This document shows positions 14,333 through 15,077 of a DNA stretch of 27,684 nt, piece by piece (positions within the stretch are counted from its first letter, which is position 1; each line of letters opens with the position of its first letter). The DNA comes from a virus. Its lineage: Duplodnaviria; Heunggongvirae; Uroviricota; Caudoviricetes. The position numbers and the translations under genes were made by a program. Under the pieces are notes generated by a model. The model was not told where the DNA came from. It was given only the letters and a program-made list of their open reading frames with translations, and ran no database searches. The stretch lies in the IMG/VR virus record IMGVR_UViG_2562617057_000002. One strand, written 5' to 3'.

Positions 14333-15077
14333 TTGCCCGCGCCTCTTTGACAGCGACATAGCACCGTTCGGTGATCAGGTAATCCAGGTTTTTACGCTTC
14401 CAGAACCCACCGCTGCCATTGGGACGATCTTCCAGCATCCAGCGACAGTTCTCAGCAACGTATCGCAGATAGGACTCCCATCGCTGCTGGTCAAAACCGA
14501 ATTTCTGCCAGAACGTCCGCAGATTTTTTTTCCTGGTATCCGTCAGAATTTTCACTGATGGCATTTCAGGCAGGATTTCGTGATAGCTGTCCAGAACCCT
14601 CTGCCAGTCGATTTTGTTTTTTGCGCGATGACTGACCTGTGGATCTGCGTCAGCAGATCCACCAACATCAGGTTCATTGACTGGTTCAAAAGAGTGACTG
14701 GTTCTGGGTGCAACTCCTGCACTGGCAACAGGTGCAACTCCTGCGCTACCCGATGCATCTGATGCACAATGTAGCGAATTATTTGCACTATTCCCCGGTA
14801 AATTTTCTGCACCATCCAGATGAAGGAGATAGATATTACTTGTATTACCTTTTTCACCTTTCCGGGTGATTTTTTTTACCAGCCCGGACTCACAAAGCGC
14901 CGCAATATGATTAATCACAGAACGCTTGCTAATCTCGCACTGGTCAGCGATATACTGGTAGCTGGGCCAGCACTCGCCCTGATCGCTGGCATTATCAGCC
15001 AGCTTAATCAGAACCAGCTTACGCAATGGATTACCCACTTTAATTTCCATTGCTTTTGCCATTAGTTTCATGCTCAT
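14322..15077 (-). CDS. Replication initiator, lambda O-like/P22 gene-18-like (N-terminal HTH plus C-terminal helicase-loading region)
   Basis: Position immediately upstream of the DnaB-like helicase with overlapping stop/start; HTH-like N-terminus; internal repeated linker SAGVAPVASAGVAP coinciding with DNA direct repeats. Confidence 0.7.
   Translation of the reverse strand: MSMKLMAKAMEIKVGNPLRKLVLIKLADNASDQGECWPSYQYIADQCEISKRSVINHIAALCESGLVKKITRKGEKGNTSNIYLLHLDGAENLPGNSANNSLHCASDASGSAGVAPVASAGVAPRTSHSFEPVNEPDVGGSADADPQVSHRAKNKIDWQRVLDSYHEILPEMPSVKILTDTRKKNLRTFWQKFGFDQQRWESYLRYVAENCRWMLEDRPNGSGGFWKRKNLDYLITERCYVAVKEARANDR
14706..14744. repeat. Two direct repeats GGTGCAACTCCTGC (24-bp period) inside the O-like gene: candidate ori iterons
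   Basis: Exact 14-bp repeat at 14707-14720 and 14731-14744; lambdoid origins lie within the O gene as iterons; an A/T-rich patch follows at ~14611-14630. Confidence 0.4.

Follow-up and report, generated by a model that had tools for sequence, protein, structure and literature searches.

A candidate replication origin of five dyad iterons and a conserved box within the initiator gene of a lambdoid prophage at the Rac site

Where does replication of a lambdoid prophage start when its initiator corresponds to λ O in role and domain layout, and its DNA-binding domain belongs to another family? The question is raised by the virus record IMGVR_UViG_2562617057_000002, a stretch of 27,684 nucleotides that was analysed as a whole and is called the window below. 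It represents a lambdoid prophage that occupies the Rac site (ttcA-intR); most of it is 98-100% identical to a prophage of E. coli CFSAN029787, and one of its minus-strand genes codes for a replication initiator of 251 residues. The original prediction, made from the letters of this DNA alone, had proposed that the gene is O-like and that it contains an origin of the lambdoid pattern, with iterons and an A/T-rich unwinding element. Our analysis indicates that the segment 14671-14812, in the part of the gene that encodes the linker between the two domains of the initiator, is probably the replication origin of this prophage; we would put the chance at about three in four. The segment consists of five iterons and a 36-bp box, which together span 142 bp. 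The idea of an in-gene iteron origin thus gained strong comparative support, from architecture, constraint on the DNA and covariation of the sites with the recognition helix; the A/T-rich element was not upheld.

The iteron array and the box

The exact repeat from which the proposal started was confirmed. The 14-mer GGTGCAACTCCTGC occurs in exactly two copies, at 14707-14720 and 14731-14744, with a start-to-start distance of 24 bp, and translation of the minus strand gives SAGVAP twice within the open reading frame 15077..14322; the match can be stretched to 17 nt with one mismatch. This pair is the sole exact direct repeat of at least 14 nt within 50 nt across the 27.7-kb window, for which the analytic expectation is 0.005 per window, and any such repeat was seen in only 3 of 300 shuffles. 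Read on the gene strand, both copies are GTGCA-GGAGT-TGCAC, which is a dyad. When the window was scanned with GTGCANNNNNTKCAC, allowing at most one mismatch, five matches were found on the gene strand within 105 bp (14708-14812) and only two more in the remaining 27.6 kb, the expectation for the whole window being 4.6. The original count of two copies was therefore too low: there are five dyad-symmetric sites, R1 to R5, which reach 14812 and so pass the end of the interval first reported (14600-14760), and the two exact copies are simply the best of them. From R1 to R5 the distances are 24, 21, 21 and 24 bp. The copies are too diverged for Tandem Repeats Finder, which detected none of them, and a degenerate dyad pattern was needed to find them. 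No other repeat clusters were seen in the replication region of the window.

Directly downstream of R5 lies the 36-bp box, with a G+C content of roughly 47% and with two direct copies of GAACCAGTCA (14695-14704 and 14678-14687), to which the boxes of relatives often add a third copy of the same type. Iterons and box occupy nucleotides 266-407 of the 756-nt gene and encode residues 89-136. The start of the box is fixed, the last iteron beginning exactly 16 nt upstream of it in 61 of 64 relatives. Conservation of the box extends from E. coli to Shewanella and Pseudomonas, and its pattern was found only downstream of an initiator N-domain of the HTH_36 type (115 of 115 testable viral contigs).

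Relatives were anchored by tblastn and Hamming scanning; the protein family has 5654 clusters at E<=1e-10. A scan of viral contigs returned near-identical mEp460-type loci only, and it informs on the stability of the copy number, not on diversity; a second scan, with one genome per species, contributed 80 further loci, from Enterobacter, Proteus, Xenorhabdus, Photorhabdus, Erwinia, Pseudomonas, Aeromonas, Marinomonas, Shewanella, Marinobacter and Vreelandella among others. The comparison set comprised 83 non-redundant loci. The comparison of iteron numbers with related genes, suggested together with the original prediction, could be made on this set: at least three sites of the main class are present in 62 of the 83 loci, the number ranging from 3 to 7 with a mode of 5, and the spacing between sites is 21-24 bp in 221 of 229 cases. 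The five sites of mEp460 have the same positions and spacing as those of the window. Four sites are found in a relative partnered with λ P, three GGGCA-N5-TGCCC sites in the 'O' gene of phi24B, and sites of the type GTGCCA-N5-TGGCAC in ZF40.

Constraint on iterons and box is exerted at the level of the DNA and not of the encoded peptide, since the sites fall in two reading frames, third codon positions are conserved in the box, the frame of the box has changed in Shewanella-type loci, and the peptide is predicted to be disordered. In 38 of 62 loci, spacings of 22 or 23 bp put the sites into two frames of a single gene; thus GTGCAGCAGATTCAC is translated as V-Q-Q-I-H at one site and as S-A-A-G-S at the next. 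Mean pairwise identity among 74 sequences at codon positions 1, 2 and 3 is 0.78, 0.85 and 0.42 in the N-domain, and in the box it is 0.85, 0.84 and 0.82, without codon periodicity. In four Shewanella-type loci the first half of the box, CCAGAACCAGTCAC, is retained but read as HPEPVT instead of PRTSH, and a T-run shorter by 2 nt brings the downstream frame back. Perfect 5-N5-5 dyads are enriched about 10-fold in linkers (0.021 per nt, compared with 0.0022 per nt elsewhere). The flanks, which lie outside the pattern used to select sites, are symmetric as well, with T at -2 and A at +16, and R at -1 and Y at +15, so that the family consensus extends to 19 bp, T-R-GTGMA-N5-TKCAC-Y-A, of the form 7-N5-7.

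As to the individual loci, those in which the box is read in the shifted frame are L143-L145 and L147 (Shewanella/Parashewanella), at about 2856-2930 of each locus, with HPEPVTL in place of PRTSHSF. Two further loci, L121 and L135, look frameshifted and are possibly pseudogenised.

The initiator and its modules

The initiator matches the Pfam profile HTH_36 (PF13730) with E=4.9e-13 and 49 bits (cut-off 25) and the PHROG 8540 profile 'replication initiation O-like' (phrog_8540) with E=2.1e-67; RefSeq WP_000062044.1, from E. coli CFSAN029787, has the same sequence (100% identity). An AlphaFold2 model, for which 26 homologues were used, divides the initiator into a winged-helix domain, a linker of low confidence and a helical C-terminal domain (Table 1); the recognition helix lies at about residues 48-62 (EISKRSVINHIAAL). 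Foldseek returned only generic winged-helix matches for the N-domain, winged-helix regulators among them, and a sequence search of the PDB with the initiator returned nothing relevant. Phage_rep_O (PF04492) had no match in the initiator at E<=0.01, λ O itself giving 5.7e-36. The N-domain has no detectable similarity to λ O (BLASTP E=0.29; hhalign probability 3.9%), and its profile did not match HK022 O (hhalign probability 0.1%). The gene can be called O-like by its role and domain layout, but not by its N-domain, which belongs to HTH_36 and not to Phage_rep_O.

The C-terminal domain presumably recruits the helicase. Its roughly 100 residues are 43-45% identical (tblastn) to SE1 Gp18 and to the corresponding proteins of phage L, HK022 (O) and VT2-Sakai (O), and in these four phages a DnaB-like helicase gene always comes next downstream of the gp18/O-type C-domain. 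A DnaB-family helicase gene follows the initiator in the window, and its RefSeq start, equivalent to 14332, makes it overlap the initiator stop. Because homology to gp18 and HK022 O is confined to the C-terminal part, and the N-domain is of the SfV/mEp460 type, the initiator is a chimera, in which an N-domain and candidate origin of the SfV type are joined to a C-domain of the gp18/O type.

The nucleotide comparison shows where the joint lies. Similarity to SfV, ST64B, mEp460, cdtI and many Stx2c/Stx2a phages covers gene nucleotides 1-407 at about 88%, and similarity to the mEp460/SfV-type genes ends at nucleotides 407-428, right past the box; the box is thus the end of the N-terminal/origin module, and the mosaic junction comes next. 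The 5' part of the gene is matched in 1035 of 5426 complete E. coli genomes and the whole gene in only 9 of them. Among the carriers of the N-terminal/origin module are Stx2c- and Stx2a-converting phages, SfV, ST64B and phi24B.

Six classes of iterons were distinguished in the family, each with a recognition-helix sequence of its own. The helix EIS(K/R)RSV(I/M)NHI goes with GTG(C/A)A-N5-T(G/T)CAC, ..RSVMRHI with GTGAC-ACAGA-GTCAC, EMTRTTAINHI with GTGTA..TACAC, EVSRSTVKSHI with GGGCA..TGCCC, EIDRSTVRKHI with GTAGGC.. and ECSK(S/T)AVR.HI with TGCCA-N5-TGGCA. What stands downstream varies: the partner is DnaC/IstB-like in 25 loci, λ P in 16, DnaB-like in 3 and in the window, and a toprim primase-helicase in 2, with others besides. 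Judged from these sequences, N-domain, iterons and box form one module that is combined with various C-domains and partners.

Table 1. Features of the initiator gene, its candidate origin and the adjoining helicase gene, in window coordinates
Feature	Position	Strand	Remarks
Replication-initiator gene	14322..15077	-	Open reading frame of 251 residues; winged helix, disordered linker and helical C-domain
N-terminal winged-helix DNA-binding domain (residues 1-88)	14814..15077	-	AlphaFold2 predicted local distance difference test (pLDDT) score 81-93; H-H-H-H-beta-beta topology
Linker-coding stretch (residues 89-152)	14622..14813	-	Predicted disordered, pLDDT <50; holds the five iterons and the box
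C-terminal helical domain (residues 153-251)	14325..14621	-	pLDDT 80-92
Iteron R1	14798..14812	-	GTGCAGAAAATTTAC; 1 mismatch to GTGCA-N5-TKCAC
Iteron R2	14774..14788	-	GTGCAAATAATTCGC; 1 mismatch to GTGCA-N5-TKCAC
Iteron R3	14753..14767	-	GTGCATCAGATGCAT; 1 mismatch to GTGCA-N5-TKCAC
Iteron R4	14732..14746	-	GCGCAGGAGTTGCAC; 1 mismatch; includes 14-mer copy 14731-14744
Iteron R5	14708..14722	-	GTGCAGGAGTTGCAC; perfect dyad; includes 14-mer copy 14707-14720; starts 16 nt before the box
36-bp box	14671..14706	-	CAGAACCAGTCACTCTTTTGAACCAGTCAATGAACC; directly after R5; encodes (P)RTSHSFEPVNEP
Least stable duplex segment beside the array	14815..14860		-33.6 to -34.8 kcal per 30 steps (mean -42.9, standard deviation 3.6)
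Perfect palindrome	14639..14662		GTGGATCTGC-TGAC-GCAGATCCAC; 10-bp arms; two GATC sites; just downstream of the box
A/T-rich patch of the original prediction	14611..14630		Encodes AKNKID, start of the C-terminal domain; no distinctive element
DnaB-family replicative helicase gene	12929..14359	-	Pfam DnaB_C 1.3e-63, DnaB 2e-24; RefSeq annotation

Known origins, a possible mechanism and competing explanations

The annotated iterons of λ (39034, 39054, 39078 and 39101) are TCCCTC-N5-GAGGGA dyads in the middle of gene O, spaced by 20, 24 and 23 bp and followed by about 40 bp of A-rich DNA. The array of the window, with its spacing of 24/21/21/24 bp, matches that of λ in kind, position, symmetry and phasing. 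Both lie mid-gene, between the coding sequences of a DNA-binding N-domain and a partner-binding C-domain, both encode a linker, and the layout is like that of λ-type origins in general (4-6 iterons of 18-19 bp, 7-N5-7 dyads). The iterons themselves are unrelated, TCCCTC..GAGGGA in λ and GTGCA..TGCAC in the window, and so are the N-domains (Phage_rep_O and HTH_36). The partner of λ O is P, whereas that of the window initiator is a phage DnaB-type helicase, and the place of the 40-bp A-rich tract of λ, about 80% A/T, is taken in the window by a box conserved in sequence. The Shiga toxin (Stx) phages 933W and P27 have six iterons of the λ type (PMC7466680), and the λ-type N-domain and iterons act as a single specificity module (PMC7466680; PMC8022706).

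The initiator encoded next to a helicase of the phage's own recalls P22 and phage L, with genes 18 and 12, and HK022, with O and a DnaB-like helicase; the mid-gene repeats of gene 18 in P22 and phage L and of HK022 O are regarded as origins (PMC8022706). The C-domains of SE1/L gp18 and HK022 O are homologous to that of the window, but their N-domains are unrelated and give no Pfam HTH_36 match, and for the N-terminal halves of HK022 O and SE1 gp18 no Pfam family rises above threshold. Their repeats are 11-bp direct repeats (TGTCCAACGGA; ATTACCAGCAR), unlike the dyads of 15-19 bp in the window. Clusters of these 11-bp repeats were located upstream of the shared C-domain at 1312-1412 of L170 (HK022; ATTACCAGCAR) and at 1324-1429 of L171 (SE1; TGTCCAACGGA). 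With the 'replication protein' of SfV, ST64B, mEp460, cdtI and Stx2c phages, and with phi24B 'O', the window shares the N-domain family, the iteron architecture and the box, but these proteins have another C-domain and partner (a 164-residue PerC-like protein in mEp460, a primase-helicase in phi24B). The literature searched yielded neither an analysis of the origin of one of these genes nor a description of the origin of the HTH_36 initiator family, for which an in-silico prediction may already have been published; papers on the plasmids pIGRK/pIGMS31 deal with an unrelated replicon.

Iteron plasmids (RK2 TrfA, R6K pi, pPS10 RepA, F RepE) resemble our model of the window in having a winged-helix initiator and phased repeats beside a melting region. 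Their repeats are asymmetric and direct, are bound by monomers and lie outside the rep gene together with DnaA boxes, in contrast to the in-gene dyads and unenriched DnaA boxes of the window, which does not qualify as an origin of the plasmid kind on any of these three points (repeat symmetry, DnaA boxes, position). Of the traits of lambdoid in-gene origins, the position within the gene, at least four phased dyads, an iteron type matched to the N-domain and a C-domain matched to the partner are all present, and an adjacent strongly A/T-rich region is not. Plasmid Rep proteins also recognise motifs that are repeated in the unwinding element when it is single-stranded (PMC4081077), and the GAACCAGTCA repeats of the box may be analogous to these.

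The course of initiation that we propose as the best supported is the following; going beyond the anatomy, conservation, constraint on DNA, helix/iteron covariation and domain modularity observed here, we infer that the DNA is bound and wrapped, at which place it melts, that the helicase is recruited and that the origin fires. Rightward early transcription would lead to expression of the initiator and of the phage DnaB-type helicase, and dimers of the N-terminal winged helix would bind the five dyad iterons of 15-19 bp. A spacing of 21-24 bp, about two helical turns, would place all the sites on one face of the helix, and the bound dimers could assemble into a nucleoprotein complex similar to the O-some. 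This complex would destabilise one of its flanks, the likeliest candidate being the box, which holds the GAACCAGTCA direct repeats, and the alternative being the segment 14815-14860, and the C-domain of the P22-gp18/HK022-O type would deliver the phage helicase to the opened DNA.

The A/T-rich patch put forward in the original prediction as the unwinding element, at 14611-14630, had to be abandoned. It is merely an 18-nt A/T run, the 60-bp intervals around it have a G+C fraction of 0.48-0.52, and with -41.4 kcal per 30 steps (regional mean -42.9, standard deviation 3.6) its duplex is of average nearest-neighbour stability. At the equivalent position, +70 to +99 from the box, no A/T enrichment was found across 82 relatives, and the patch belongs to the exchangeable C-terminal module, on the far side of the mosaic junction. 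It is the box that is conserved next to the iterons. On the other side of the array from the patch, the least stable segment beside the iterons (14815-14860) encodes the wing of the winged-helix domain; the family shows an A/T enrichment of +0.095 at -140 to -111 from the box, and this segment is a possible alternative unwinding flank. A further candidate, the palindrome at 14639-14662, is non-random by itself, and its ends look like iteron half-sites (GTGGA/TCCAC). It was rejected as a conserved counterpart of the right-hand palindrome of λ, being missing from the nearest relatives L172, L173 and ZF40, and it is probably specific to the lineage and outside the conserved origin. No promoter-like sites were seen inside the array, terminator-like matches are at background level, and the Rfam RNA families gave no match.

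Several observations speak against an origin at 14671-14812. One is that no strongly A/T-rich unwinding region of the λ kind, of about 40 bp, was found beside the array in the window; across the family the A/T content of the box exceeds the locus background by only about 0.10, and its stability in the window, -39 to -41 kcal as compared with a mean of -42.9, is near average. DnaA boxes are not enriched (61 box-like matches, with 55.6 expected), and there is no perfect one near the array. Four of the five sites of the window have an arm mismatch, while the closest relative, L172 (82% amino acid identity), has five consensus sites; since, in addition, the prophage bears insertion sequences, an IS110-family element among them, this copy of the origin may be weakened or inactive. 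The covariation of helix and iteron is clade-like, so that it is not statistically independent of phylogeny. In the literature searched, experimental binding or origin activity was found for no member of the family.

The absence of a strong A/T-rich element would also suit a different view, in which the dyads are genuine sites of the initiator whose main role is not firing. They could serve autoregulation or act as a transcriptional roadblock in the replication operon, control copy number by handcuffing, or exclude related phages, and replication would start elsewhere. Binding of winged-helix dimers to inverted repeats is characteristic of operators, transcription in iteron plasmids is repressed by Rep dimers on such repeats, and the sites of the window do lie within a transcribed operon. 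We consider such an explanation unlikely, as the layout equals that of the proven origin of λ (7-N5-7 dyads, phasing of 20-24 bp, mid-gene position between the binding domains), the array is inherited with the N-domain while being joined to various helicases and loaders, and no second repeat cluster was seen in the replication region of the window. Still less can be said for the repeat being a low-complexity linker expanded by replication slippage, with no function of its DNA. The encoded segment is indeed rich in Gly, Ser, Ala and Pro and predicted to be disordered, and among about 85 mEp460-type genes there are three with an additional 21-bp unit; but the linker encoded in 64 of these loci is identical, so that copy number is very stable. 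A peptide would have no need of dyad symmetry, of sites in two frames, of a fixed spacing and distance to the box or of conserved third codon positions, nor would its site sequence be expected to covary with a recognition helix. Because the conservation is independent of frame, the slippage reading is largely refuted, and we hold it to be very improbable.

The box raises an issue of its own, namely whether it serves mainly as a linker sequence for homologous recombination, through which N-terminal/origin and C-terminal/helicase modules are exchanged, and is no working part of the origin. The break of similarity immediately behind it, the matches of 42-54 nt, mostly box, that are common to otherwise divergent genes (H67-H70), and the at least four types of partner joined at it would all be accounted for in this way. 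Such an exclusive role seems quite unlikely, given the fixed 16-nt distance to the last iteron, the conservation from E. coli to Shewanella and Pseudomonas without codon periodicity and the direct repeats of the box itself, often with a third copy; purifying selection of this kind is easier to explain by a direct function. The two roles are compatible and not mutually exclusive. As to the direct role within the origin, we tentatively suggest, with more doubt than confidence, that the box might be a sequence-specific element for origin opening or helicase loading rather than a generic A/T-rich tract, and that the first 45 residues of the initiator, which are nearly invariant, might recognise it, perhaps in single-stranded form, whatever the iteron class and the helicase partner. 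If this were true, the box together with the six helix/iteron pairings would make a 'specificity code' available ready-made, along with a portable origin cassette.

Prophage context and significance

In the rightward direction, which is that of the minus strand, the genes follow in the order of a divergent cI-like repressor, YdaS/Cro-like, YdaT/CII-like, initiator and DnaB-family helicase. The YdaT-like gene is separated from the start of the initiator gene by 90 nt, in which lies an inverted repeat at 15097-15161, TGCCGAACCT / AGGTTCGGCA, with 10 perfect bp and arms 45 nt apart, and within it a smaller terminator-like hairpin (minus strand, 15157-15142); the repeat could serve regulation or termination upstream of the replication genes. 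Beyond the helicase gene, between it and a DUF1627 gene, lies the IS110-family element (11427-12874), with a transposase at 11653-12849 on the plus strand (Pfam DEDD_Tnp_IS110, Transposase_20). This element is missing from the CFSAN029787 prophage, which has IS2 elsewhere. On the other side, a type II toxin-antitoxin pair at 18395-18957 consists of a Phd/YefM-family antitoxin (77 residues, E=4e-7) followed by a ParE-family toxin (106 residues, E=1e-7). The A/T-rich stretch from the immunity region to this pair contains a 156-residue open reading frame (17163-17633, minus strand) in which four Cys are arranged as CxxC...CxxC and for which Pfam gave no match at E<=0.001; it could be a cargo or defence gene.

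Lambdoid in-gene iteron origins are textbook knowledge, and the feature described here is of an ordinary kind, with a layout conserved across many gammaproteobacterial prophages. What appears to be new is the family-wide architecture, the conserved box that is not A/T-rich, and the helix/iteron pairings. A tentative repeat of two copies has become a defined and testable candidate origin of five sites and a box within 142 bp. The initiator family is very common, with at least the N-terminal/origin module in about a fifth of the complete E. coli genomes (the 1035 counted above) and with prophages throughout the Gammaproteobacteria. In Stx phages it is replication that drives toxin production, and work on their origins has centred on O proteins of the λ type (PMC7466680). 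The pairings of iteron class and helix, together with the unusually conserved box, lead to concrete hypotheses on how origin specificity and opening may be achieved, and the conservation independent of reading frame makes this family a clear case of a DNA signal hidden in a disordered protein linker.

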